Below are positions 4,222 through 19,879 of a stretch of DNA of 64,000 nt, in pieces. The position numbers and the translations under genes are program-made. Source of the stretch: Candidatus Poribacteria bacterium (GTDB taxonomy: Bacteria > Poribacteria > WGA-4E > PCPOR2b); NCBI GenBank assembly GCA_965116925.1, contig OZ220744.1:5312001-5376000 (forward strand), in the 5' to 3' direction. A model generated the notes under the pieces. It saw nothing but the letters and a program-made list of their open reading frames with translations, did no database searches and was not told the origin of the DNA. How positions within the stretch are numbered: the first letter of the stretch is position 1; each line of letters starts with the position of its first letter.

Positions 4222-5040
4222 TCAGTCGTCTGGTCTTTGCCCCACATAGAGTATGTGTCTGGACGAAGCCACAATGCTTTGTTCTGCACTGATTTTGAAA
4301 AGAAGATCCAACCAAAGGTCTCTCTGCTTTCCTTCAAGTGTGTTGTAGCTCTCATCGTCTGCAGAGATAGCCGGCTCGACACCTGCAATCTTGAGGGTGC
4401 GAAACCCTACATTCTCGTGCATAGGGGCGATCTCATCCAGCCGGACAAAATAGCCGCGGAAGCCACCCCTTGGGGCATCAGCAGGACGGTGACCGTCTCT
4501 AACCAGCGACCAGACCTCTTTCTGGTTCTCAATCCACGAAGGGCTTTTCTTGATGAGATCTCCAAAAATACCAAATCTGGAAATCAGTGCAGAAAAGATT
4601 ACTCCTCCCGGCCTTAGACAAGCGTAGGCTGATCGCAGGGCTGCTGTTCGATCGGTTTCAAGCAGTAGATGGTACAGCGGTCCCATAAGCAGAACAGCCT
4701 TGAACTTGCCACGCGGAATCCCATCTAACTTGCGCGCATCGCCAGTCCGGAAATCAATCTGATCAGAAAGATCGAGGTCTTCTGCCCTCGTCTTGCACCG
4801 GGTAACGTATTCATCGGCAAGGTCGACAGCTGTGATCTGGTAGCCTCGTTGTGCTAGAGGAAAGGTATAAAACCCTGTGCCGAAACCAACTTCGAGGAGC
4901 CTGCCGTGCATTGGCAGGTACAGATCCAAATAGCGCCAAGTGATATCAGCTTCAAGTTGGTGACGCTCCAATCTGCTTGCTTCGACATCCCAGCCAGCAT
5001 TATACATCTCGCGTATATCGGTTAGGTCATCCATAGTCAT
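4222..5040 (-). CDS. Class I SAM-dependent methyltransferase
   Basis: LLEVGFGTG motif I; GDAR; VLLMGPLYHL; LRPGG. Confidence 0.88.
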   Translation of the reverse strand: MTMDDLTDIREMYNAGWDVEASRLERHQLEADITWRYLDLYLPMHGRLLEVGFGTGFYTFPLAQRGYQITAVDLADEYVTRCKTRAEDLDLSDQIDFRTGDARKLDGIPRGKFKAVLLMGPLYHLLLETDRTAALRSAYACLRPGGVIFSALISRFGIFGDLIKKSPSWIENQKEVWSLVRDGHRPADAPRGGFRGYFVRLDEIAPMHENVGFRTLKIAGVEPAISADDESYNTLEGKQRDLWLDLLFKISAEQSIVASSRHILYVGQRPDD

Positions 5041-5139
5041 CAATGGTTTTTCTTTATTTTTCGAGTTAGTTTAATCGTGTCAGAAGTTGACGAAAAGCGG
5101 CGTCCGTTCAGACGCAGCTTGTAGATTGGTTAGGGATGA

Positions 5140-5486: not shown

Positions 5487-6470
5487 CTATCGCAGCCACG
5501 TCCACGCGGCCTTAGTTGCTGGATAGACAAGTTCTTCTCTCAAGTGTAGTCTCTTAATTTCTGGATCTTCAATTGTGCCCCGAATCCCCTGAGCATATCG
5601 AAGCAGTTCATTGTCCGGATAGGCTAACCTTCTGGTGACTATTTGGACCGGGAGTTCTGATGAAAAACTCAACTTCTGAGGCATCTTTATATAGATCATC
5701 TCTATACGGTCAACCAGTTCTCGTTTGCCATTTACCTTCTCAAATCCTTCCTCCAGCAGAGGAGAAACTTCGTCGGCAATAGCACCTAACTTTCTAAACT
5801 CTTTCCACAACCATTTGTGGTAAGGTGCATGACGTTGATTCATCAGAAAACCAACCTTCATTGCATATTCAGCGAATCGTGCCCAATAGCAAGACGCGCT
5901 CACGTAGTCTCCTCGATCTTCTGCCCTGAAGAGATGCTTTCGCCCCCACTCCCAGAGCCAAGAAAGGCAAGCCCCCATCCGCTGCTTCCATACATCATCC
6001 GGGTATTTGGAAAACGCTCTCAAGCGCGCACTGACAATGCCAGGCTCATCGTGATAAAGCCTGCTCGGGGTTAGTTCAAACAGATACGACTCTGGTATTT
6101 GCAACCAGTTCATGGCTGACTTGGGGGGCTCTGAAAATCCGACTACAGATTCTATATAGCTACCGATTTCGATTACACCACAGGTCCTAGCGGGTGGATT
6201 CTTCCATCGAAACCCGTCAAACGCATTGGGCAGCATATCGAATACTTCCCGTAGATGCTCACCATAATCATCGAAATCATCTTTGGCAAACCACACCGTG
6301 AATCCCGGTCCCCAACCGTGATCACGAGACACCTCGTCGTCGTTCTTGTGCGCTTGCGACCCTCCACCAACTCCCACTGCCAGTCTCGGGATACACTTAG
6401 GCAATCGCTGCTCAATAGTAGGAAGCCCAATCTCCCGGAAGAATCGCTCTGATAGTTCAAATCCTTTCAT
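5487..6470 (-). CDS. DUF4037-domain protein (nucleotidyltransferase-like)
   Basis: MKGFELSERFF..GGGSQ...DDEVSRDHGWGPGF; YPDDVW; APYHKW. Confidence 0.8.
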   Translation of the reverse strand: MKGFELSERFFREIGLPTIEQRLPKCIPRLAVGVGGGSQAHKNDDEVSRDHGWGPGFTVWFAKDDFDDYGEHLREVFDMLPNAFDGFRWKNPPARTCGVIEIGSYIESVVGFSEPPKSAMNWLQIPESYLFELTPSRLYHDEPGIVSARLRAFSKYPDDVWKQRMGACLSWLWEWGRKHLFRAEDRGDYVSASCYWARFAEYAMKVGFLMNQRHAPYHKWLWKEFRKLGAIADEVSPLLEEGFEKVNGKRELVDRIEMIYIKMPQKLSFSSELPVQIVTRRLAYPDNELLRYAQGIRGTIEDPEIKRLHLREELVYPATKAAWTWLR

Positions 6471-6662
6471 AGAGGCCTCCACGAAGACATTTCTTAGATA
6501 GCAACTAATACTAGTTCCAGATCTAAAGACGACTAATTCTTTTTGAAAACCAATGGTAGACGATACCGTATTCGTGTTAGTAGCCGGTTGCTTCAAAATT
6601 TGAGTAGATATTTGGATCTGGCTGATATTATACCATACACCTAAAAAATGTTGGATACCATT

Positions 6663-6700
6663 AAAAAGCCCTGTTAGATCCTCCAACAGGGCTTTTTTTT
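6663..6700. terminator. Intrinsic terminator, potentially bidirectional
   Basis: AAAAAGCCCTGTT-loop-AACAGGGCTTTTTTTT downstream of the ABC permease. Confidence 0.8.
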
Positions 6701-6745: not shown

Positions 6746-7999
6746 TTACTCAGTACGGAGTGCCTCGATCGGCGATAGCTTCATCGCTTTTATGGCTGGA
6801 TACAACCCAAAGCCAATACCTATCACCGCAGAAAATGACACCGAAATCAGTACCCACCGTGCCGAGAGAACCGCAGGCCATTCGGGAACAATCTTGACAA
6901 TCTTGACAGCCAGATGTGCCATCCCTTTACCGGCAAAGGTGCCAAATCCAACCCCTATTAGTCCGCCAATACTGCACATGGCAACAGATTCAATCAAAAA
7001 CTGAAGCAGAATATCCAAATTTTTTGCCCCCAATGCCTTTCGCAATCCGATTTCCCGTGTGCGTTCCGCCACAGCAACCAACATCATATTCATGATGCCA
7101 ATCCCGCCAACAAGGAGTGAAAATCCGGCGATACTTCCCAAAGCGATTTTAATAACCTTGCTAATTTTCCCCAGTTCTGCCACACCGGCTCGTATGTCAA
7201 AAATGACAAAGAAATCATCTTGGTTGTTGTGCCGTTTCCGCATAACCGATTTGACCTCTTCAATTGCTTTTGGAATAACCTCTACGGTGTGTGCTTTAAC
7301 CGCAATCTGCAAAATCCGATCGTTGCCGGTGAATCGTTGCTGAGTTGTTGTGATCGGAATAAAAACGAGCTCATCAAAACTAAAACCAAATTTAAGGCTT
7401 CGCCCGCGGGGCTCCAGCGTGCCAATAACAGTGAACCGCTCTCTCTTTCCAATTTTAATCTCTTTTCCGAGTGGCGATGCTACACCAAACAACTCCGCAG
7501 CCACACTCGATCCGAGCACAACAACTTTCGTAGCGTTGTCAACGTCTTGATCGGAAATAAACCGCCCTTCACGCAAGTTCCAGTCCATTGCCGCGGTATA
7601 GGTAGCATTCACACCGTTATAGCCGCCACGGGTGTTCGCGCCGCTTGGGGCTTGAATCAACACACCGGTCCAATTCGGAATACGTGGGGTGACCACCTTA
7701 ACGGAGGGACACTCCGCCTCAATCGCCAAGACATCGCCGTAGTTAAAGTGTTCCCCACTCCGAATCGGCACCCGGCGACCATTAACCCACTTTGAGGTGG
7801 TGCGATACAACGTGAATTGGTTAATACCACCAATCTTTTGAAGATCTTGGAGGATAATTTCTTTGGCACCATCGCCGATGGCTATCATCGCAATCACAGC
7901 CGCAATGCCGATGATAATACCAAGCATCATCAGCAAGGAGCGTAGTTTGCTTGAGTAGATCGCTTTTATCCCAACGGATATCCCATCACTTAGACGCAT
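6746..7999 (-). CDS. MacB/FtsX-family ABC transporter permease
   Basis: LRSLLMMLGIIIGIAAVI; LLVGGIGIMNMMLVAVAERTREIGLRKALGA; GLYPA..A.KLSPIEALR. Confidence 0.93.
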   Translation of the reverse strand: MRLSDGISVGIKAIYSSKLRSLLMMLGIIIGIAAVIAMIAIGDGAKEIILQDLQKIGGINQFTLYRTTSKWVNGRRVPIRSGEHFNYGDVLAIEAECPSVKVVTPRIPNWTGVLIQAPSGANTRGGYNGVNATYTAAMDWNLREGRFISDQDVDNATKVVVLGSSVAAELFGVASPLGKEIKIGKRERFTVIGTLEPRGRSLKFGFSFDELVFIPITTTQQRFTGNDRILQIAVKAHTVEVIPKAIEEVKSVMRKRHNNQDDFFVIFDIRAGVAELGKISKVIKIALGSIAGFSLLVGGIGIMNMMLVAVAERTREIGLRKALGAKNLDILLQFLIESVAMCSIGGLIGVGFGTFAGKGMAHLAVKIVKIVPEWPAVLSARWVLISVSFSAVIGIGFGLYPAIKAMKLSPIEALRTE

Positions 8000-8133: not shown

Positions 8134-8433
8134 TTATACATTATCATGAAATAACGAAAATGTGGTTGGTTCGACGGAGGACACCGGCGTCTCAAAATCA
8201 GGGAACAGCCAGAGTTGATTCGTCTCATCTGCCTCTGAGGTATCCTTAACAGCTAGTTCGTCAGGTGGAATCGTTGAATTGCCCCAGAAATCCATCTGCT
8301 CCACCGTTTCCACGTTCTGATTTGATGCAATACGGGCGTAGATCCGGGCGCGTTGCTCAGAGGAGATCGCTTGCGAGGCGAAGACTTCGCGCATCAATTG
8401 TATGAGTGTGTCGGTAAACAAATCTGTTTGCAT
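8134..8433 (-). CDS. 99-aa acidic protein with multiple beta-clamp-binding-motif-like peptides (putative anti-sigma or clamp ligand)
   Basis: ATG overlaps the upstream TAA (TAATG); QTDLF(2-6), QMDFW(46-50), QLWLF(73-77), TFSLF(91-95). Confidence 0.7.
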   Translation of the reverse strand: MQTDLFTDTLIQLMREVFASQAISSEQRARIYARIASNQNVETVEQMDFWGNSTIPPDELAVKDTSEADETNQLWLFPDFETPVSSVEPTTFSLFHDNV

Positions 8434-9566
8434 TATTTCAAAGGCATTACAAGATAACGAAGGTTTTGCGCCAATTGAAGGTATATCGGCGGAGAATTTT
8501 CTGCGTCTGGGTGCAGCCAAAGTGTAACATCATTTGCATCAGTATGCAGGAGTGGCTCTTTAAAAAACCAACTATCAACTGCTATCACTATCTCTGATCC
8601 CGCATACTGAATTGGCACACAGGCTTCCGATTTTCCCAAGTGAGTATTGTTTGCAACAGTCAACTGTCCATCGCTAAAATGAAACTCGGTACGACGGTGG
8701 GGATTATCCTCTACATGAATGATTCCGAGTGCCCAGAGCAACCTTTCGCGGTTCACTTTGACTTCCAAGCGGGTAGGCGCCTTTTCAGTCCTTTCAATAA
8801 TTGACAGATAATTTGGGTAATTTGCTTGCGACGGCCAGAGACATCTTAACACAACACCTTCAACCTCAAAACTCACGGCATTTTCAGTGAAATGTAGTCG
8901 GCAGACCTCTGGTTCTAAGGATTCTATAAGGTCTATCATCTTTACGCACGCTTTATAAGCCATTGCTCGTCTGGGGACTGGTGCTTCTGTGTTTGCTAAC
9001 GCACGCGCGGAGGACAACGTCAACACCGCCATCCGTTTGCCATCGGTGGTCACGATTCGGTCCTCGCCATCATGTCTATGAAAAAGTACTCCCCACATGC
9101 TAGCGCGTCGTTCCGCCCCTTCCGCGTCTGATGGTTTTTCTGATGCGAACAAAACAGTATCCAGTGCCCTCCCGAACTGCGACGCTGGAATTTCATACCC
9201 GTGTACATCGGTTAATTCTTTAAGTGCCGGATCCTGCCATTTTTCTGCGTATGTATACACGACGTGTTGGTGCTGCTCGCCTTCAATGTCCAGACACCCA
9301 TGCCTTTCGTGATGACTGAACAACAACGTCTCACTAGTCGTATATTCACAGATGCGCGGCAGGGCATCTGCGGAAATGGTTGCCGTACCGGAGATTTCAA
9401 CTTCGGCTGGAATCGTGGCGTCAATACAGAAGTTCCCATCGTCAGTATAGCATCGAAACTGTAATTGCGTCGCTTGCGCTGTTATTGACAAGTGCGCTTT
9501 CGGTTCATCAAGTTTCAAAAGTGCTAAGGCACGTTTCAACGTAGCAACCTCACAGGTGAATTTCAT
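8433..9566 (-). CDS. dnaN: Divergent DNA polymerase III beta sliding-clamp paralog
   Basis: 377 aa; MKF start after GGGAGG SD; VTTDGKRM (cf. ATDGHRL), NYPNY, C-terminal YLVMPLK; no dnaA/recF/gyrB neighbours. Confidence 0.85.
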   Translation of the reverse strand: MKFTCEVATLKRALALLKLDEPKAHLSITAQATQLQFRCYTDDGNFCIDATIPAEVEISGTATISADALPRICEYTTSETLLFSHHERHGCLDIEGEQHQHVVYTYAEKWQDPALKELTDVHGYEIPASQFGRALDTVLFASEKPSDAEGAERRASMWGVLFHRHDGEDRIVTTDGKRMAVLTLSSARALANTEAPVPRRAMAYKACVKMIDLIESLEPEVCRLHFTENAVSFEVEGVVLRCLWPSQANYPNYLSIIERTEKAPTRLEVKVNRERLLWALGIIHVEDNPHRRTEFHFSDGQLTVANNTHLGKSEACVPIQYAGSEIVIAVDSWFFKEPLLHTDANDVTLWLHPDAENSPPIYLQLAQNLRYLVMPLK

Positions 9567-9622
9567 CGGTTCCTCCCTTTTCCCCAGCGGTGCCCTATTG
9601 GGCATATTTTTCCAGTTCAAAT

Positions 9623-10180
9623 TTAAAGTAGATCCTTGAGCGATGTGTTCCGTTGTTTTAATAACCGTAACACTTCATCGCGCAAGGCTTTTCGCGCACG
9701 TTGCCGAAGAGATTTCACAGCGATCTCGCTCCGTTGGACAATTTCTGCAATTTCTCGATTCGGTGTATCTTCCAATTCACCTAACACCAGCACAGTCCGG
9801 TCAATTGGACGCAATTGAAGTAGTGCCGCTTGCAAAAATTCTGCGCTTTCGGAGCGGATTAATTGCTCGAGTGGAGCTTCTGTCGAAGCCACCGGGCTAG
9901 TAAACGCCTCGGTCATCTCAGCCACAACCGTTACCTCCAATGAAGTTACCCAGTGTCGCTGACGCTGGCGCATCAGGTCAATACATCCATTATATGCGAT
10001 GCGAAAAAGCCACGCCCGGACAGATGCAGGATCGAGCAACTCAGACCAACCTTGGTACGCTCGCAGAAAGGTTTCGGCGGTCATATCCTCGGCATCTGTT
10101 GGATTTCCCAGTAACCGCAGAATAAACCGATAAATAGCGTCAACATGTAATTCATACGCTTCGGTGAATGATGCCTCCAC
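9623..10180 (-). CDS. ECF (sigma-70 group 4) RNA polymerase sigma factor
   Basis: Region 2 DAEDMTAETFLRAY and WLFRIAYN..ID..R; region 4 REIAEIVQRSEIAVKSLRQRARKALR; GTG start. Confidence 0.92.
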   Translation of the reverse strand: MEASFTEAYELHVDAIYRFILRLLGNPTDAEDMTAETFLRAYQGWSELLDPASVRAWLFRIAYNGCIDLMRQRQRHWVTSLEVTVVAEMTEAFTSPVASTEAPLEQLIRSESAEFLQAALLQLRPIDRTVLVLGELEDTPNREIAEIVQRSEIAVKSLRQRARKALRDEVLRLLKQRNTSLKDLL

Positions 10181-10215
10181 AAATACAGTACCTCGTCGGC
10201 TCGTGTTTTCAGGAT

Positions 10216-10246
10216 ATTATGACGAAGAAAACGGGATCAGGCATCG
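10216..10246 (-). promoter_or_regulatory. Candidate ECF-type (autoregulatory?) promoter
   Basis: CGATGC-16nt-CGTCATAAT upstream of the sigma gene; CGTC is a common ECF -10 element. Confidence 0.3.
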
Positions 10247-10264
10247 AAAATAATGCTTAAACGC

Positions 10265-10298
10265 AAAAGGGGATTCCCAATCCATTGAGAATCCCCTT
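10265..10298 (-). terminator. Intrinsic terminator separating the upstream DUF4037 gene from the ECF unit
   Basis: AAGGGGATTC...GAATCCCCTT inverted repeat with a short U-tract on the minus strand. Confidence 0.7.
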
Positions 10299-10334: not shown

Positions 10335-11399
10335 TCAATCATCATAGATATCAATCAAACACCGGGATCGCTGCGCGCTGCTCAAGACATCCGTACTATC
10401 CACAAACTGATCGATGCTCCCTACCAGCGGTTGCCTTTTCAGCCACTCATCTTGGATAGCTGCCAAGCACGCCTCAGCAAATCGATCGCCTCCGAGCACC
10501 CGAAAGGGACGTTTATAGAACAAGCGGGTTTCAGGATCGACGGGAGGGGTAAGGTTCAGTCGGTTGTAGCAACAGGCGATATATTCGTAGGCACAACAAA
10601 GTGCTGCTTCTCTGGCAGGATAGTCCGTTGCCTTGAGTGCTGCCTCCAGATGCGGGGCGAGTCTAGGAGCCATGCGGAGATTTCGGAATGCACTGCCCAG
10701 CCACTTGCTATACGGAGCATATCGCCGCTCTATCAGAAAGCAGAGTCTCATGAGATCGCGTATGATACGCGCTGTCAGGATCCGTGAACCGAGCTCATCA
10801 CCTACTTCAGCCGTGCGGCCAACAAACGCCTCTTCTTGAGCGATCCGACGCCACTGACAAGCCAAGAGCCATAGCCAAATATCGTCTGGATACCACTCCA
10901 GTTTATTGCGGACACGCTTTAGGTCTCCGGCGGGATCATGAAAGACCGCACCCGCTGTCACCTCTAGCAATAGCTGTTGTGGTGTTGTAAGCCAGCTTTG
11001 GACAGTAATATCCACTTGCAGGTCGAATCCCAGATGCGATTTAAGCCATTCCCCAAGGGGTGCAACATGCACATGGTGCTGAACGGCGACCTCATCCCAA
11101 CCGAAGTACACAGGCCATCCGTGAAACTCCTCTGGCAGGCTGGAATCGATAATCGTGCGAACGACATCTACATCAGAGGCTGCCACAAAAAGGTGTAGTC
11201 GTGGTCCCCAACCATGGTCAGTGGATCGTGGGGTATCAAAACCGAGGACATCCGACCCCGAACCTAGCCTCGCTGCACTGTGGGTTCGTTCTTCCATGAG
11301 TGGACGAACAACTTCAATGTAGAACAGCCGAGATAAATCAATGCCGCTTACAAAGTCACCGCCATCGTTGGATGTATTGTTGGTTTTAGTCGAGACCAT
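10335..11399 (-). CDS. DUF4037-domain protein (second paralog)
   Basis: GIDLSRLFY; GSGSDVLGFDTPRSTDHGWGPRL; WYPDDIW; YAPYSKWLG. Confidence 0.85.
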   Translation of the reverse strand: MVSTKTNNTSNDGGDFVSGIDLSRLFYIEVVRPLMEERTHSAARLGSGSDVLGFDTPRSTDHGWGPRLHLFVAASDVDVVRTIIDSSLPEEFHGWPVYFGWDEVAVQHHVHVAPLGEWLKSHLGFDLQVDITVQSWLTTPQQLLLEVTAGAVFHDPAGDLKRVRNKLEWYPDDIWLWLLACQWRRIAQEEAFVGRTAEVGDELGSRILTARIIRDLMRLCFLIERRYAPYSKWLGSAFRNLRMAPRLAPHLEAALKATDYPAREAALCCAYEYIACCYNRLNLTPPVDPETRLFYKRPFRVLGGDRFAEACLAAIQDEWLKRQPLVGSIDQFVDSTDVLSSAQRSRCLIDIYDD

Positions 11400-11427: not shown

Positions 11428-12507
11428 TCAATGACTTACGTGAATTGTTGCTACTTGATCAAATGTGCGTCCGATCTGTGGTAGATACCCAATCTCATTA
11501 CTCAAACGTGCTACCGCCCTACACCGACATTTTAACTCATCGGATACTTCGATCAGATCTGTGCGCGTTCGGGGAATGGGGCCAAGACGTAGTAGCCAAT
11601 ATATCCAAGCTATCAGTACCCCTTTATAATAAATAGCGTCGTCTAGTGCTCCGGGCAAACCAGAGGATAGCTCCTTCCGATAAACGCTTTCGATCTCTTG
11701 CGCCAGAACTTCATCGCATTCCCAGCGCACCGGAAAAGGGAACGGACCTAAAGGAACATCAAGGGGAAAGTATCCGTAACTACTGTACTCGAAGTCGACG
11801 AGTTTCACACCGTCGTCCACCAACAGATAGTTCTGGGGAGCAATATCCACATGCCTGAAAGCAGAAAATGGTTCAGCGTTTGAAAGAATCTCCTTCAATT
11901 CAGACAGTTCGCTCTCAAGGGCGATAGATTCTGGTTGCCCAACTAATGTTGCGAATCTACGAAAAGTCCGGAGAATTCCATCGAATGAATCTGTCTCTGC
12001 TTGGTAGTGGGTTCCCAGACTCGTCCGTAGACTGAGCCATTCGTTTTTCCTTCCATAGGTGCTCCCGTGCATACGGCCCATTGCTTGAGCGTGGGCAAGT
12101 AGAGCGTCTGCTCGCTCGGCTGCATTGGATTTACGCAATATATCCCTGAACGAGCGTGCTTTCGGCACATACTCAAATGCGATTAATCCCTGTGTAGCGT
12201 CACCGGCAATGAACTTGGGGGTTATCATCCGATCACTATTGATTTCACCCAAGAACCGAAGCGCAGCCCATTCATTGAAGAGTTTCCAAGCCGAGCTTCC
12301 GACACAGTCCCGTTCACGATCGTACGGTTGGTGCTTGGTCTGTCTAGCCATCTTGACAAGCAACACTTCTGGCAGGTAACTAGGTCCGTCAGCTACCCAA
12401 CAGCGAAAGATACGATTCTTCTTGAACTTCGTGCATTTTGCAAGTCGAATCTCGTATTTGAGAGAATTTGACAGACTTCTTTCTATAAGTAATAACGGGA
12501 CATCCAT
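11428..12507 (-). CDS. Aminoglycoside phosphotransferase/choline kinase-like protein
   Basis: LLVK; FRHVDIAPQNYL; VKLVDFE kinase motifs. Confidence 0.7.
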   Translation of the reverse strand: MDVPLLLIERSLSNSLKYEIRLAKCTKFKKNRIFRCWVADGPSYLPEVLLVKMARQTKHQPYDRERDCVGSSAWKLFNEWAALRFLGEINSDRMITPKFIAGDATQGLIAFEYVPKARSFRDILRKSNAAERADALLAHAQAMGRMHGSTYGRKNEWLSLRTSLGTHYQAETDSFDGILRTFRRFATLVGQPESIALESELSELKEILSNAEPFSAFRHVDIAPQNYLLVDDGVKLVDFEYSSYGYFPLDVPLGPFPFPVRWECDEVLAQEIESVYRKELSSGLPGALDDAIYYKGVLIAWIYWLLRLGPIPRTRTDLIEVSDELKCRCRAVARLSNEIGYLPQIGRTFDQVATIHVSH

Positions 12508-12590: not shown

Positions 12591-12727
12591 AGGACTTACG
12601 CATTTCCTCTTAAAGTCCCCCTGACAAGGGGGATTTAGGGGGTTGGGGGATTTAGGGGGTTAAATGCAACCAAATAACGACTTTTCAGCAAAATATGCCA
12701 ATTTTCTGTTCAATTTGCGTAAGTCCT
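12591..12727. mobile_element. MITE-like element with 12-bp terminal inverted repeats AGGACTTACGCA
   Basis: AGGACTTACGCA (12591-12602) and TGCGTAAGTCCT (12716-12727); internal CCCCCTGACAAGGGGG hairpin and duplicated GGGGGATTTAGGGGGTT. Confidence 0.7.
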
Positions 12728-13751
12728 ATCTTGCATAACCCAGCTTTTCCCTAATCCGTTTTAGGAGCGAGAAGGCAAAGGGCGGACTCGCACCAAGGGC
12801 ATCCCAAGAATCTACCGCTCGGAGATCAAACCAGCCAATATCCTTTATTGGAGATTCTGCGTCGCCCACTTCGGGTTCAATCCCGGGCTGGGCCACGCCT
12901 CCAATAATCGGGCATAGATACGTCCTGTGTCGCTCATAGAAAGGGTCTTGCGGGACCTTCTCGTCCAGAATGAGTCGCTCCACTTCTACTCGGAGATGCG
13001 TCTCTTCCCACACCTCTCGTATCACACACTCTTCTTCGGATTCCGAACCCTCCCGCCCGCCACCGGGAATTACCCAAACCGCCTTGCCATCATCTTCGAT
13101 TTTCAGTAAGAGGACGTGGTGATCCTTGAAGATGACTGCCTGATATCGAATATCTCGTCCCTGAAAGATATCTCGTCCCTGCAAGGGCATGTCTGGCAGA
13201 TGATTGCGAACCTCGTCCCAAGTATCACGGTTCCTCAAGACAGCAATAACCGACGGCAGCGGATCTGCCCATACGCCTCGGAGGTCCCTTTCTCCCTCAA
13301 CGGCTATGGGCCATGCTAATTTCTCGTTGGGCGGATCGAATTGAGCGTCTATTCCGCTTCTATTGCCTCTTGGATCGATTCTGTACCACCCAAATTCAGG
13401 CAGGAAAACTGCATTCAAACCGTGTAGTGTGAAGGGAGGCGTTTTACCATTTCGTGTGAGCCGTTGGTAACACAGGCCGGCAGGTATACGGTTTGCCCTC
13501 AAGAGTGCAGCCAGCAGATGACTTTTGGCAAAACACCAACCTGTCTTATAACGCAATACTTCGGACGCAGCACAGGTCGTCGGATTCATCTTGAAGTCGC
13601 CACTATGCTTGATTTCATCTCGTACCCACTCGAAGCAGCGTTTTGCGATTGTCGTTTGCTCTGATATTCCGTCTCCTAGAGTACGCGCGAGATCTTGAAC
13701 TTCGGGGTGGTTATAGTCCATCACGTCTGTGGGACGCAAGTATTTATCCAT
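12726..13751 (-). CDS. Transglutaminase-like domain fused to a NUDIX hydrolase
   Basis: GWCFAKSHLLAALLRA, LHGLNAV, WYRIDPRG (C-H-D triad); Nudix box GGGREGSESEEECVIREVWEETHL. Confidence 0.88.
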   Translation of the reverse strand: MDKYLRPTDVMDYNHPEVQDLARTLGDGISEQTTIAKRCFEWVRDEIKHSGDFKMNPTTCAASEVLRYKTGWCFAKSHLLAALLRANRIPAGLCYQRLTRNGKTPPFTLHGLNAVFLPEFGWYRIDPRGNRSGIDAQFDPPNEKLAWPIAVEGERDLRGVWADPLPSVIAVLRNRDTWDEVRNHLPDMPLQGRDIFQGRDIRYQAVIFKDHHVLLLKIEDDGKAVWVIPGGGREGSESEEECVIREVWEETHLRVEVERLILDEKVPQDPFYERHRTYLCPIIGGVAQPGIEPEVGDAESPIKDIGWFDLRAVDSWDALGASPPFAFSLLKRIREKLGYAR

Positions 13752-13765
13752 ATCAATCCTCCAGA

Positions 13766-14551
13766 TCAGCCTCGCTTGCGGCAGACTGAGATAATGCTAG
13801 GGCTATCAGCGGTCAACGGTTCTAGATTCCAATCACCATACTGCCGTTCAATGCTGAAGCCGTTGTAGTGTAGCAGTGCCGCAAGTTCCTGTGGGAAGGT
13901 GTAGCGCAACGCAGTACGCGTAATCTTGGTATGCTCCTCTCCACCCTCGTGCCAGCGTTTGTAGGTTGTCCAGTGGTGGATCTGAGCCACATGGTCATAT
14001 ACGTAGGTTCTCGACACACGCACTTCGCACCCACTTGTATCAATAAAGGGGGACCACTCTTGTTCCTTCGCATTCGTTTCAAGGGGCACAAATAGCCCTT
14101 CTGGGGGCTGAGAATGAGGGAAAATCGGATTACGCGTTTCAAAAGCCAACAATCCTTGGTCGTGTAAATGCGAGTACACACGTTGCAACAGTGCTTCCTG
14201 ATCGGCGTTTGTCAAAAACGCCTGAAAAGCGTTGCCAGTTAAAAAGATAAGCCGAAATTGTTCGCTGAGGTCAAATGTCCGGGCGTCTCCCACAATCCAA
14301 CGTGTAGGCAAGCCAACGGATTTGCTACGCGCCCGCTCTATCATTCCCGGTACAATATCTAAACCTGTTACAGAAAAACCCAATTGTGCAATCGGGATAC
14401 TGACACGCCCTGTACCACAGGCAATTTCGAGCACCGAACCGCCGGTCTCTTGTGCTAGGGCAGTGTAGAAGGCAATACCTGTATCGCTAGCATCCTCCAT
14501 GTCATAGTTGGCTGGATCGGAGAATTCCTCAAGATTGTCGTAATCGATCAA
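13766..14551 (-). CDS. Class I SAM-dependent methyltransferase
   Basis: VLEIACGTGR; VTGLDI; GDARTFDL. Confidence 0.9.
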   Translation of the reverse strand: MIDYDNLEEFSDPANYDMEDASDTGIAFYTALAQETGGSVLEIACGTGRVSIPIAQLGFSVTGLDIVPGMIERARSKSVGLPTRWIVGDARTFDLSEQFRLIFLTGNAFQAFLTNADQEALLQRVYSHLHDQGLLAFETRNPIFPHSQPPEGLFVPLETNAKEQEWSPFIDTSGCEVRVSRTYVYDHVAQIHHWTTYKRWHEGGEEHTKITRTALRYTFPQELAALLHYNGFSIERQYGDWNLEPLTADSPSIISVCRKRG

Positions 14552-16186: not shown

Positions 16187-17131
16187 ATGATGAAAATATC
16201 CGTCTGGGACGGAGGTCTCTCGGACAGTTATCTGAAGCAGGTTACACAGTTAGGCGCGGATTACATCGACTTTGGTGGTGGCGACTCTTTCCCCGGTGTC
16301 ACAGAACAGGGCTATCCGGATCTGGACGAAGTCATCAAAATCAGAAAGCGAATCCGTTCATGGGGACTCGACATCAACCGTGTGACCCTACCTGACATCA
16401 CCGAGACATTTATGAAAGGGTTGCCGGGCGCAGAAAAAGAACTGGAAAACACTTGTAACGCCTTAAAGGTTTTCGCGGAAGCCGGCGTCCCCATCGCAAG
16501 ACAGCGATTCTGGGGCGATACCTTCAACGAAATAATGACCCGATACAATTCAGAGCATCGCGGAGGTTACCTATCGCGTGGAGAAAGCCGTGGATTGACA
16601 GTAAATCCTCCCGAAACACCAAACTTTGAGGCACTCGAAGAGTGGTGGAAACGCTTCTGCGAGGTCTACGGGCATCTGGTCCCCATTGCGGAAGAACACG
16701 ATATCAAACTCGCCATCCACCCCTCCGACACGCCCAACCCCGACACGCCTTTGGGAAGTTTGGGGTTCCATCGCGTGATTGATGCCTTTCCCAGTAGAAA
16801 TGTTGGATACCTTTACTGCTGCGGCACCAGAGGTGAGGCGGGCAGCACCCCTCTCGTTCTCGACGAGATCAACAACTATGGGCGCAAAGGCAAGATTTTT
16901 ATGATTCACCTACGCAACGTCAGAGGGAGCCTTGCGACTGCCGGCGCCTTTGAGGAGGTCCTCCTAGACGATGGCGACATGAATATGTTCAAAATCGTCC
17001 TCGAGCTCCATAAGGTCGGATTCGACGGTTGCTTAAACCCCGACCACATCCCCCGTATGGAGGGTGACGACGGATTGGCATATTCGGTTGGGTACATCAA
17101 AGCGTTATTCGCTGCGCTGTCAGTTGTCTAG
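16187..17131 (+). CDS. Mannonate dehydratase (UxuA)-family protein
   Basis: LVPIAEEHDIKLAIHPSD; IHLRNVRG; DDGDMNM; PDHIP; AYSVGYIKAL. Confidence 0.8.
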   Translation: MMKISVWDGGLSDSYLKQVTQLGADYIDFGGGDSFPGVTEQGYPDLDEVIKIRKRIRSWGLDINRVTLPDITETFMKGLPGAEKELENTCNALKVFAEAGVPIARQRFWGDTFNEIMTRYNSEHRGGYLSRGESRGLTVNPPETPNFEALEEWWKRFCEVYGHLVPIAEEHDIKLAIHPSDTPNPDTPLGSLGFHRVIDAFPSRNVGYLYCCGTRGEAGSTPLVLDEINNYGRKGKIFMIHLRNVRGSLATAGAFEEVLLDDGDMNMFKIVLELHKVGFDGCLNPDHIPRMEGDDGLAYSVGYIKALFAALSVV

Positions 17132-17204
17132 GGCACACTGCTGCGATTGCTATACTTGTCAACCATTCGGATTCGGAGAATCCAAACGAAAAGGAGACTA
17201 CAAA

Positions 17205-17705
17205 ATGCCCGATTCCAAAACGTCTCTTGGTTTCGAGGCTACGGTTAGTTTGCGTGAGATTACACAGGATACACTCAACTCCATTCTGAATCTTCGTGTA
17301 ACCAAGGATCAGGAACAGTTTGTCGCTTCAAACGCGGTCTCTATTGCACAAGCTCACTTCTCGGCGGATGCATGGTTTCGCGCGATCTATGCGGACGAGA
17401 CGCCCGTCGGTTTTCTGATGCTATCTGATCAACCTGACAAAGGAGAGTATTTCTTATGGCGATTCATGGTTGATCTCCAGCATCAAGGAAAAGGTTATGG
17501 TCGTCGCGCCCTTGAACTTCTAATCGAGCATGTGAAAACACGACCGAATGCGAAGGAACTTTTCCTGAGCCATGTCCCCGGTCCTGGAAGTCCCGAGGAC
17601 TTCTATCGCCAGCTAGGCTTTGAGCATACAGGCGAGCAGGCGGGGGAGGAATTAGTGATGAAATTGACGCTTCATAAAGGAGGTTCAGTCGAATCTCAAG
17701 AATAG
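17205..17705 (+). CDS. GNAT acetyltransferase (spermine/spermidine acetyltransferase-like)
   Basis: QEQFVASNAVSIAQA; RFMVDLQHQGKGYGR; FYRQLGF; AAGGAG SD. Confidence 0.88.
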   Translation: MPDSKTSLGFEATVSLREITQDTLNSILNLRVTKDQEQFVASNAVSIAQAHFSADAWFRAIYADETPVGFLMLSDQPDKGEYFLWRFMVDLQHQGKGYGRRALELLIEHVKTRPNAKELFLSHVPGPGSPEDFYRQLGFEHTGEQAGEELVMKLTLHKGGSVESQE

Positions 17706-17720
17706 GTATAGGAGGGTATT

Positions 17721-18761
17721 ATGAAGTTTTATCACGGCACAACCTTACAGAATGCGATTAGAATTGCCGAGATGGGCTTTCTACCAAGGAAGGGCGTAGT
17801 CTGGTTCACCACGAGTAAGCATCGTGCCCAACGCCGCGCCAAACAAAAAGCGCGTAAAACCGCTAGTCCGCCGTTTGTCTTTACCTGCGAAATCAACCCC
17901 CAAGAATTGTATAACCGCCTTGGAAAACATCTCGTTATGCGCAGCAAGGGATTTCTTGCTATCCGGCGGCGTGTCCCGCCAACGGTGATACTGAATTCAT
18001 CCGAACTAATTGCTAGGTGGGTAAGCCACATACTCCAAGGCGAATCCTATGAGAGTATTAGCCCGAATCACCCTGGAATAAATCGATTGTCGCGCTGGGT
18101 GGAAAACCGCATGAAAGCTGGCACGGACAATGCCATCCGTCCAAAGGAACTGTCACAGAGGCTGCAGCAATGGCTGCCCAATTTTTTTCGAGGGGTCAAG
18201 ATCGTACCTGAAGATTTACGCTTCGACTATTTTCCTGAACTCGCTGATTTTGAAACAGAACCTTTACCAGAGCTGGTTGATTCACGGGAGGAAAACGCAC
18301 TTGATGCTCTCGCCGCTGCGAAACCGCAGCGACGCATCCGCGGTCTTGAACTGCTAGCACAACTTGAACACGAGGATCTCTATGAATGGTGCACGCTTTT
18401 ACTCTTGGATGAGTCAGTAGAGGTTCGCATCGCTGCCTTACAAACAATAGTCCATTGTGACGATGGAGATCCGGAGGCTCTCCTACCATTTGCCGAATCT
18501 CAAAATAAGCGGATTCGGGCAGCAGCGATTGCCGCCCTTGCCAAGCATTCCGCCGAAGACGCGTCCCGTTGGTTTCAGCGGGGATTGAAAGACCGCGAGG
18601 CGTGTGTACGCCTTGAAACAGCAGCTCTGCTTCCAAAACTCGATGTAACCCAACACCGGGAAATTTTTGAACTCGCGCTCTATGACCCGAATCCTGCAAT
18701 CAAGCATCTTGCGGAGAAACTCACTGCGGGGAAGGGCTATGCAGATGCAAGGTTAGGGTAA
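17721..18761 (+). CDS. KptA/Tpt1-like (ART-fold) N-domain + HEAT-repeat protein, copy 1
   Basis: FYHGTT..I...GFLP...VWFTTS...RVPPTVI; HEAT repeats DESVEVRIAAL, NKRIRAAAIAAL, DREACVRLETA, DPNPAIK. Confidence 0.75.
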   Translation: MKFYHGTTLQNAIRIAEMGFLPRKGVVWFTTSKHRAQRRAKQKARKTASPPFVFTCEINPQELYNRLGKHLVMRSKGFLAIRRRVPPTVILNSSELIARWVSHILQGESYESISPNHPGINRLSRWVENRMKAGTDNAIRPKELSQRLQQWLPNFFRGVKIVPEDLRFDYFPELADFETEPLPELVDSREENALDALAAAKPQRRIRGLELLAQLEHEDLYEWCTLLLLDESVEVRIAALQTIVHCDDGDPEALLPFAESQNKRIRAAAIAALAKHSAEDASRWFQRGLKDREACVRLETAALLPKLDVTQHREIFELALYDPNPAIKHLAEKLTAGKGYADARLG

Positions 18762-18820
18762 TGAAATTGACGCTTTAGCGAAGGGAATTCACCTGAATCC
18801 CAAGAATGGAGGAGGAAGTT

Positions 18821-19879
18821 ATGAGGTTCTACCACGGTACAACCTTACGGAGCGCGATTAAAATTGCCGAGATGGGCTTTCTCCCAAGGAAGGGTGCGGT
18901 CTGGTTCACCACGAGTAAGCAATATGCCCAAGGACGTGCCAAGCAAAAAGCGCGTAGAACGGGGAGCTCACCATTTGTGCTTACCTGTGAAATTAATGTC
19001 TCAGAATTGTATAACCGCCTTGGAAAAAATCTAGTTATGCGTGGTGGGGGTGTCGTTGCTATCCGAGGGCGTGTTCCACGGACGGTGATACGTTCACACT
19101 TTACGTTAGAACTACTCAATTCGCCCGAACACATTGCCAGGTGGGTGAACCAGAAGCTCGGACGCAAATCCTATGAAGGTATTAGTCCTCGCCACCCCGG
19201 AATAGATCGGTTGTCGCGTTGGATGGAAAATCGCGCTAACTCTGGCACCGGCAGCACCATCCGTCCAGAAGAATTTGCACAGAAGCTACATCAATGGCTG
19301 CCCGACTTTTTCCAAGGGATTGAAATCACGCCTGAAGATTTGCGTTTCGACTGTTTTCCCGAACCGGCTGAAATTGAGCCAACCCCTCCGTCAGAACCGG
19401 TGGATTCACGGGAAGAAAACGCCTTTGATGACCTCGCTGCCCCAAAACCGCAACGACGCATTCGCGGTCTTAAACGACTGGCACGGCTTGGAAACGAAGA
19501 TCTTTATGATTGGTGCACGCTATTGCTCTCGGACGAGTCATTGGAAGTTCGCATTGCCGCCTTACAAACAATAGCCCATTGCGACGACGGAGATCCAGAC
19601 GTTATACTGCCATTCGCCGAATCTCAAAATAAGCGAATTCGGGCAGCAGCAATTGCCGCGCTTGCCAAGCATTCCGTCGAAGACGCTTACCGCTGGTTTG
19701 AACAGGGCTTGAAAGACCGTGAAGTATGTGTGCGCCTTGAAACAGCAGCCGTGCTTCCAACATTGGATGTAACCCAACACCGGGAGATTTTTGAACTCGC
19801 GCTTTATGACCCCAATCCAGAGATTAAGCGACTAGCACAGAATCTCACGGCAAAGAAAGGTTATGCTAATGCTAGGTAA
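18821..19879 (+). CDS. KptA/Tpt1-like (ART-fold) N-domain + HEAT-repeat protein, copy 2
   Basis: Colinear paralog of 17721-18761; GGAGGA SD. Confidence 0.75.
   Translation: MRFYHGTTLRSAIKIAEMGFLPRKGAVWFTTSKQYAQGRAKQKARRTGSSPFVLTCEINVSELYNRLGKNLVMRGGGVVAIRGRVPRTVIRSHFTLELLNSPEHIARWVNQKLGRKSYEGISPRHPGIDRLSRWMENRANSGTGSTIRPEEFAQKLHQWLPDFFQGIEITPEDLRFDCFPEPAEIEPTPPSEPVDSREENAFDDLAAPKPQRRIRGLKRLARLGNEDLYDWCTLLLSDESLEVRIAALQTIAHCDDGDPDVILPFAESQNKRIRAAAIAALAKHSVEDAYRWFEQGLKDREVCVRLETAAVLPTLDVTQHREIFELALYDPNPEIKRLAQNLTAKKGYANAR

Follow-up and report, generated by a model that had tools for sequence, protein, structure and literature searches.

What role could a beta sliding clamp play when its gene directly adjoins that of an extracytoplasmic function (ECF) sigma factor? 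This question is raised by a cassette of three genes in the genome of a Candidatus Poribacteria bacterium (assembly GCA_965116925.1), located in a stretch of 64,000 nucleotides of contig OZ220744.1 (positions 5,312,001 to 5,376,000 of the forward strand), which as a whole is referred to here as the window. The cassette encodes an ECF sigma factor, a divergent paralog of the DnaN-type beta clamp, and a small acidic protein. Judging from sequence comparisons and predicted structures, the cassette is real, conserved, and unusual, and it would represent a form of clamp-coupled control of transcription, possibly a new principle in which a clamp serves as anti-sigma factor. The matching docking features of the trio, found in the tail of the sigma factor, the pocket of the clamp paralog, and a peptide of the small protein, suggest that gene control is coupled to a clamp in a manner not described before.

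Matching docking features in a sigma factor, a clamp paralog, and a small protein

A preliminary description of this DNA had reported a sigma factor gene, a gene for a 377-amino-acid clamp 56 nucleotides further on, a 99-amino-acid open reading frame (ORF) joined to the latter by a TAATG overlap, and a hairpin upstream. Each of these features was found in place (Table 1). The distance of 56 nucleotides separates the stop codon of the sigma factor gene from the start codon of the clamp gene, and the ATG of the latter at position 9566 is preceded by a strong ribosome binding site, AGGGAGGA. At the other end of the clamp gene, its TAA and the ATG of the small ORF have one base in common. Such an overlap suggests translational coupling, and is commonly seen in stoichiometric pairs. 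The hairpin is retained in close relatives, even where the gene upstream of it is a different one.

The sigma factor consists of regions 2 and 4 only, as recognized by the Pfam domains Sigma70_r2 (PF04542, 59 bits) and r4_2 (PF08281, 46 bits). It scored 81.7 bits against TIGR02937 (sigma70-ECF), which is above the cut-off of 42.9 bits, and no narrower NCBIfam model, at either the subfamily or the equivalog level, was matched at its cut-off. With a mean column identity of 85%, it is the best conserved of the three proteins, ahead of the clamp (70%) and the small protein (38%); the column conservation of the sigma factor and the small protein was taken from alignments of 19 homologs. Past region 4 and a short stretch of variable sequence lies the motif [LI]-x-D-L-[FL], in which D183 and L184 are invariant among these homologs, and with which the relatives end as [LI]-x-D-L-F. 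A similar acidic-hydrophobic motif, located 0-3 residues from the end, was present in all 8 of 8 sigma homologs at 45-60% identity, and such a tail is also kept by a distant sigma factor (L038). Within the genome, the cassette sigma factor is the only one of 39 sigma-like ORFs that ends this way, and ORFs ending in DL[FL] are rare in general (7/10302). The tail can be described as clamp-binding-like, and is deeply conserved. As such, it provides an additional argument for a role of the clamp in the control of the sigma factor, which the preliminary description had proposed. No recognizable anti-sigma factor is encoded beside the sigma factor: the adjoining gene is that of the clamp paralog, and the small ORF showed no match to an anti-sigma family.

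The clamp gene of the cassette is an extra copy, because the replicative dnaN is located elsewhere in the genome, in the typical dnaA-dnaN-recF context. The preliminary description had made its proposal dependent on such a canonical gene, and its presence was confirmed at G000:C1:4977190-4978284 of the genome, which is assembled into one contig of 6.47 Mb. The gene is preceded by that of DnaA and followed by a RecF-type gene, and its product scored 287.8 bits against TIGR00663 and contains all 3 Pfam clamp domains. The paralog, in turn, reached 83.8 bits against the same model, under the equivalog cut-off of 137.65 bits, and showed a single weak Pfam domain match. The 2 proteins share 27% identity. 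Despite this divergence, a 3-domain beta-clamp fold was found in the AlphaFold2 model of the paralog (mean predicted local distance difference test score, pLDDT, of 69.8), and its best Foldseek matches were bacterial DnaN proteins (approximately 400 columns, E value of approximately 1e-24, template modeling score of 0.55-0.58).

To locate the pocket between domains II and III in which clamps bind their partners, we relied on the list of pocket residues of the Escherichia coli clamp, and mapped these positions onto the paralog through an alignment. Of the 20 equivalent positions, 8 are invariant (R154, T174, G176, R178, P251, V373, M374, and P375) and 2 are nearly so (D331 and F334), versus 110 invariant positions among all 377. 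The remaining pocket-equivalent positions mostly carry conservative changes. The paralog has retained the predicted partner-binding pocket.

A separate observation concerns the composition of the paralog, which contains 16 histidine and 9 cysteine residues, whereas the replicative DnaN of this genome has 3 and 5, respectively. Within residues 84-101 of domain I, which are predicted to form beta strands, S84, E87, D93, E95, G96, and H99 are invariant, and H89 and H101 nearly so. This histidine cluster, which may serve as a metal or redox site, is missing from P0059, a distant member of the family that is introduced below.

In the AlphaFold2 model of the small protein, 2 helices were predicted (residues 5-19 and 25-39, pLDDT of 74-80), with the rest of the protein being disordered. 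The sequence QLWLFP is located in the disordered tail, where W75, L76, and F77 are invariant among the 19 homologs and Q73 is nearly so, while the surrounding sequence is otherwise variable. QL.LF occurs in 32 of the 10302 stop-to-stop ORFs of at least 110 amino acids in the genome, corresponding to approximately 0.001 expected occurrences per 99 amino acids. Because the motif is this rare, and because it is also invariant across relatives, the arrangement is more than chance. The preliminary description had pointed to multiple docking motifs in this protein, and 3 are present, QTDLF (residues 2-6), QLWLF (residues 73-77), and FSLF (residues 92-95). Of these, the central motif alone is firm, as the N-terminal motif lacks its phenylalanine in 8 of the 19 homologs and conservation at the C-terminal motif is loose. 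Since the outer 2 motifs are not invariant, we rejected the candidate reading of all 3 as clamp-binding peptides. With its conserved helical hairpin, the small protein also amounts to more than a series of docking peptides.

In one relative (L018:5134-5481), the QLWLFPDF unit is duplicated in tandem together with an acidic spacer, and the second copy reads R-L-A-L-F-L-D-F. Such behavior would be expected of a modular linear motif.

No family was found for the small protein in Pfam, NCBIfam, PADLOC, or PHROGs, nor was there a usable match in the ESM Atlas, and the protein has no cysteine or histidine motif. With PADLOC, the sigma factor, the clamp, and the 2 DUF4037 proteins that flank the cassette gave no match either, and the small ORF gave a single match at noise level (E value of 0.043).

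ECF sigma factors typically recognize promoters with a conserved -35 element and a CGTC-type -10 element. A sequence of this type, CGATGCC-N15-CGTCAT, was found upstream of the sigma factor gene in all 23 of 23 aligned sequences, including that of the most distant Poribacteria locus, and is flanked by T-rich and TA-rich bases. We built a position weight matrix (PWM) from 19 distinct versions of this promoter and used it to scan the 6.47-Mb genome, in which the cassette's own site scored 51.5 and the next best site 12.6. With a relaxed pattern, 12 matches were found across the genome. Nine of these lie inside ORFs of at least 120 amino acids; the other 3 comprise the site of the cassette itself and 2 sites that are not located close upstream of an ORF of this length. 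The predicted promoter seems to serve the cassette alone. Parts of all 3 genes, at a depth of 2-6 and with 85-98% likeness, were present in contigs of 2 RNA-Seq libraries from one study; these contigs are without transcript ends, and they were not counted as evidence of transcription.

Table 1. Positions of the cassette features and of surrounding genes within the window.
Feature	Position	Strand	Details
Terminator-like hairpin opening the conserved cassette	10267-10298	-	14-pair stem, followed by a T run
ECF-type promoter-like element	10215-10252	-	CGATGCC at 10240-10246, 15-nucleotide spacer, CGTCAT at 10219-10224
ECF sigma factor ORF	9623-10180	-	185 amino acids, GTG start, GAGG ribosome site
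C-terminal tail of the sigma factor	9626-9646	-	Last 7 residues, T-S-L-K-D-L-L
Divergent, non-replicative beta clamp paralog	8433-9566	-	377 amino acids, ATG at 9566, stop codon at 8433-8435
Small acidic ORF	8134-8433	-	99 amino acids, pI 4.05
Hairpin of 2 helices in the small protein, residues 5-39	8317-8421	-	Predicted from the AlphaFold2 model and the alignment to the distant trio
Clamp-binding-type peptide of the small protein, residues 73-80	8194-8217	-	Q-L-W-L-F-P-D-F, in the disordered tail
MacB-type permease	6746-7999	-	MacB_PCD and FtsX domains
Small-molecule-modifying genes	828-1394, 4222-5043, 5487-6686, 10335-11399, 11428-12507, 12726-13751, 13766-14551, 17064-17705		
HEAT-repeat proteins	17721-18761, 18806-19879	+	

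Distribution and mobility of the cassette

Relatives of the clamp with an E value below 1e-80 were present in 12 out of 40 related genomes, and in 7 out of 19 genomes of the same genus. For 11 of the relatives the locus was fetched, and in each the order of sigma factor, clamp, and small ORF was maintained. When a single genome of each prokaryote species was scanned, 22 loci were found, of which 20 belong to metagenome-assembled genomes titled Candidatus Poribacteria; of the other 2, one is on a contig of 1.9 kb with a different title, and one is titled "uncultured bacterium". The sigma factor gene was found in all 22 of these public loci, and the small ORF in all 21 that were not cut by a contig end. 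The conserved synteny that the preliminary description had called for is thereby established among both the 11 relatives and the 21 complete public loci, and it extends to a lineage whose clamp is only 25% identical to that of the window.

This lineage was found among 1.84 billion representative proteins, 10 of which matched the clamp profile at an E value of 1e-30 or lower, whereas the others look like ordinary DnaN. Two of the 10 are distant members of the family, P0059 and P0060. Two metagenome contigs were recovered that cover the neighborhood of P0059, in which the clamp is preceded by an ECF sigma factor gene with a product 43% identical to that of the window. Downstream, an ORF of 95 amino acids overlaps the end of the clamp gene. 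The small-protein family could be aligned to the N-terminal, hairpin part of this ORF (hhalign probability of 68%, E value of 4.9e-5), in which the motif reads Q-L-F-L-Y. The recurrence of the trio in this distant lineage indicates, on the basis of these alignments, that the arrangement of 3 genes predates the Poribacteria group. P0060, a protein of 389 amino acids, scored 136 bits against the family profile, near the score of P0059.

Across the phylum, the clamp was detected in 22 out of 176 genomes (18 of the 133 of good quality), which are spread over 6 of 31 genera, while none of the 112 genomes in the largest family contained it. The neighbors of the cassette vary from locus to locus, and in many of these the small ORF is immediately followed by a terminator. 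Moreover, the module tree is at odds with taxonomy: the clamp of one genus in the window's family is 73.9% identical to that of another family, versus 59.5% to that of the window's genus. One Poribacteria genome contains 2 diverged whole cassettes on 2 contigs (L029 and L030), and a decayed remnant was found in another genome, at L039:551-1279, where the linker region of a sigma factor runs into the middle of a truncated clamp. The double copy and the remnant are suggestive of module turnover. Because of the patchy distribution, the varying neighbors, the extra copies and remnant, and the discordance between module tree and taxonomy, we consider the cassette an accessory element that is gained and lost, and that has probably been transferred horizontally.

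Searches of viral collections yielded little. Among 50,697 phage records, a single match was found, with 20% identity, and no relative was present in IMG/VR when this was searched with the clamp alignment and with P0060. In PHROGs, the sigma factor and the clamp matched generic families of sigma and processivity factors, and the small protein matched nothing. The trio is best explained as a self-contained cassette that moves horizontally and is carried by Poribacteria living as sponge symbionts, as well as by one or more uncultured lineages at a greater distance.

A possible feedback loop and its rivals

In our proposal, the spare clamp would grip both its own sigma factor and the small protein, the latter acting as an adaptor, and the three would form a feedback loop governed by pocket occupancy; we hold this to be plausible, if somewhat short of probable. 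The ECF sigma factor would drive the cassette's own promoter. One pocket of the putative clamp ring would grip the acidic-hydrophobic C-terminal tail of the sigma factor, while the other pocket would grip the QLWLFP peptide of the adaptor, whose hairpin would hold the sigma factor, making the adaptor an anti-sigma-like bridge. As long as pockets are free, the sigma factor would be kept inactive. Once the pockets are filled, be it by clients or by toxins, phage proteins, or natural products that block them, or once the ring is loaded onto DNA, the sigma factor would be released and more clamp would be made. In this way, a spare or decoy clamp would be provided on demand.

Such a titration loop fits best because the cassette itself is the only visible target. 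Titration is also how DnaK controls sigma-32. The likeness lies in the proposed logic, in which the product of a regulon holds its own sigma factor via its client site and the client load frees the sigma factor, but the proteins involved are unrelated, and the logic is only proposed here. That a cell would devote a separate clamp to this purpose is plausible because overproduced Mu C, a phage protein, is lethal by soaking up the replicative clamp (PMC12867686). The more specific notion that the clamp itself acts as anti-sigma factor, with its pocket holding the ECF sigma factor, a bivalent adaptor helping, and occupancy or DNA loading being read out as transcription, is put forward as a tentative one.

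Several points weigh against such a loop. We infer each of the protein contacts, the direction of control, and the stimulus from sequence features and models. The complex predicted for the clamp, the sigma factor, and the small protein scored 0.70 (with the small protein being scored), and the same score of 0.70 was obtained when the clamp was replaced with an unrelated protein, so that this score is neutral with regard to clamp binding. The model of the clamp itself is moderate, as its mean pLDDT indicates, and its formation of a ring, its loading onto DNA, and its binding of the host's clamp partners are only putative. The sigma tail is without the leading glutamine of the classical bacterial clamp motif, and it could instead serve proteolysis, or contact with an adaptor or RNA polymerase. 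When Pfam was searched with the 19 homologs of the small protein at E values up to 10, only scattered noise was found, and no anti-sigma family. Finally, the PWM includes spacer positions that are shared by descent, so that a looser regulon could be missed.

The main rival of sequestration is transcription activated by a clamp, in the manner of bacteriophage T4, which we regard as unlikely but serious. The spare clamp would be loaded at nicks or primer ends by the host's clamp loader, slide to the promoter, and tether the sigma factor-RNA polymerase complex via the sigma tail and the peptide of the small protein as co-factor. Transcription would be switched on only at DNA that is being replicated or repaired, and the small protein would repress without the clamp and co-activate with it, as gp33 does. 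In T4, short C-terminal epitopes that bind the clamp are found on both gp55 and gp33, and gp33 acts as a repressor when no clamp is present (PMC2988020, PMC7892883). The layout of the cassette matches that of gp45, gp55, and gp33 in that a sigma-family factor ends in a short, conserved hydrophobic-acidic epitope behind a variable linker, a protein of approximately 100 amino acids carries a clamp-binding peptide in its C-terminal part, and a sliding clamp is the third partner, with the binding being predicted here (PMC2988020, PMC7892883). Conservation of the sigma tail and of the adaptor motif also speaks for this rival. There are clear differences, however. T4 is a phage, whereas the cassette is cellular, and the module was not found in the viral collections searched. 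Its gp45 is a PCNA-like trimer that functions in replication, whereas the clamp of the cassette is a non-replicative paralog of the DnaN type. Where gp55 lacks region 4, and gp33 takes its place on the beta flap, the sigma factor of the cassette has an intact region 4 and a conserved -35-like element, which the late promoters of T4 and Mu lack. In PHROGs, no homology of the small protein to gp33 or to any phage family was found, and with the cassette's own promoter as the only recognizable target, there would be little for an enhancer-like clamp to activate.

Mu C, a member of the Mor/MuC family, provides another parallel. It contains near-consensus beta-clamp-binding motifs and requires a DnaN-type clamp, and it demonstrates that a bacterial beta clamp can activate host RNA polymerase (PMC12867686). 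The cassette resembles it in combining clamp-binding-type motifs on transcription proteins with a DnaN-type clamp (PMC12867686). Mu C, however, is a DNA-binding activator that works with sigma-70 and borrows the host's replicative clamp, whereas in the cassette the motifs are found on an ECF sigma factor and an adaptor, and a dedicated paralog is encoded in the same operon.

An entirely different function would be that of a selfish or abortive-infection element, in which the small protein is a growth-arresting toxin that blocks the pocket of the host's replicative clamp with its QLWLFP peptide, the paralog is the antidote or decoy that soaks it up, and the sigma factor provides dedicated expression. 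The distribution of the cassette, with 22 out of 176 genomes of the phylum, varying neighbors, a two-copy genome, a decayed remnant, and a module tree that does not follow taxonomy, is in line with this, as is the overlapping gene pair with the putative antidote first; proteins that titrate the clamp can be lethal, as Mu C documents (PMC12867686). A pure pocket blocker, on the other hand, would have no need for a conserved helical hairpin, and the conserved tail of the sigma factor would be left unexplained. Toxin-antitoxin pairs usually regulate themselves without a sigma factor. Given also that no match was found in PADLOC and that the neighbors are not defense genes, we judge this explanation to be improbable.

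Could the cassette be an ordinary pair of ECF sigma factor and anti-sigma factor with a cargo gene? In that case, the small protein would be a cytoplasmic anti-sigma factor, the clamp-type peptides would dock the regulators on the host's replicative clamp instead of the paralog, and the paralog would be no more than a regulated product, for example a drug-insensitive clamp like GriR or MypR. GriR and MypR are second DnaN copies that provide resistance to griselimycin and mycoplanecin, and such copies serve as self-resistance to pocket-binding antibiotics (PMC10817943). The cassette shares with these systems a second dnaN-type gene beside the housekeeping one, in an accessory location (PMC10817943). 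Genes for modification and efflux are also found nearby, encoding chloramphenicol-phosphotransferase-like and aminoglycoside-phosphotransferase-like kinases, methyltransferases, a GNAT protein, and a MacB-type permease, and the restriction to its own promoter would be compatible with a simple regulated product. However, the genes of GriR and MypR belong to biosynthetic clusters close to transposases, and their products function as replicative clamps, whereas no biosynthetic cluster, no nonribosomal peptide synthetase or polyketide synthase gene, and no transposase was present among the flanking ORFs scanned, and the paralog is accompanied by its own sigma factor and adaptor. As far as is known, resistance copies of DnaN are close homologs of the housekeeping protein. 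The paralog, with 27% identity to the genome's own DnaN and a score below the dnaN equivalog cut-off, is far more diverged, and its pocket is strongly conserved along with the peptides. We consider this explanation quite doubtful.

That the genes are chance neighbors with accidental motifs is barely conceivable, since none of the loci seen departs from the gene order, even where clamp identity drops to 25%, the 3 genes travel together among differing neighbors, and the motifs are invariant within otherwise variable sequence.

In its general layout, the cassette still resembles typical operons of ECF sigma and anti-sigma factors, with an autoregulated ECF-type promoter (predicted in this case), the sigma factor first, co-transcribed partner genes after it, and a small helical protein that could hold the sigma factor. 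It differs from these in having a clamp beside the sigma factor, a small protein without an anti-sigma signature, and a clamp-type sigma tail. Among ECF sigma factors, those of groups such as ECF41 and ECF42 are regulated by C-terminal extensions. The cassette sigma factor likewise has a conserved, probably regulatory addition past region 4, but this is a linear peptide of approximately 15 residues rather than a folded domain, and its presumed receptor is the separate clamp protein.

To our knowledge, clamps steer transcription in 2 phages only, T4 and Mu, and while we know of sigma factors that are held by an anti-sigma factor, a partner switch, phosphorylation, or a fused domain, we know of none that is held by a clamp. 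No paper on an ECF sigma factor with a clamp paralog was found in a literature search that returned only the phage cases and unrelated work, and of which the coverage excluded subscription journals and supplements. The clamp pocket has been validated as an antibiotic target, and toxins and phage proteins target it as well. If the contacts of the proposed loop are real, they would constitute a new regulatory principle in which transcription is linked to the clamp pocket, and the first case of a cellular sigma factor that is controlled through it. The cassette would then form a built-in sensor for antibiotics, toxins, and phage proteins that target the clamp, and the conserved peptides could act as natural ligands with which to study and probe the pocket.

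Genomic surroundings

Downstream of the small ORF, a gene encoding a MacB-type permease begins after 135 nucleotides. No terminator was found between the 2 genes, and the permease may be co-transcribed with the cassette in this genome. A gene of this type also lies downstream of the cassette in 3 relatives, while in most other loci a terminator is present at this position.

The surroundings of the cassette are rich in genes for the modification of small molecules (Table 1). Among the encoded proteins are a chloramphenicol-phosphotransferase-like kinase, 2 methyltransferases, a fusion of transglutaminase and NUDIX domains, and a GNAT protein. In addition, 2 DUF4037 paralogs flank the cassette, and one protein showed a weak match to choline and aminoglycoside kinases. 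The neighborhood may be a variable, "resistance-like" region. Further away, 2 adjacent genes encode HEAT-repeat proteins of similar size, which have the appearance of a tandem duplication.

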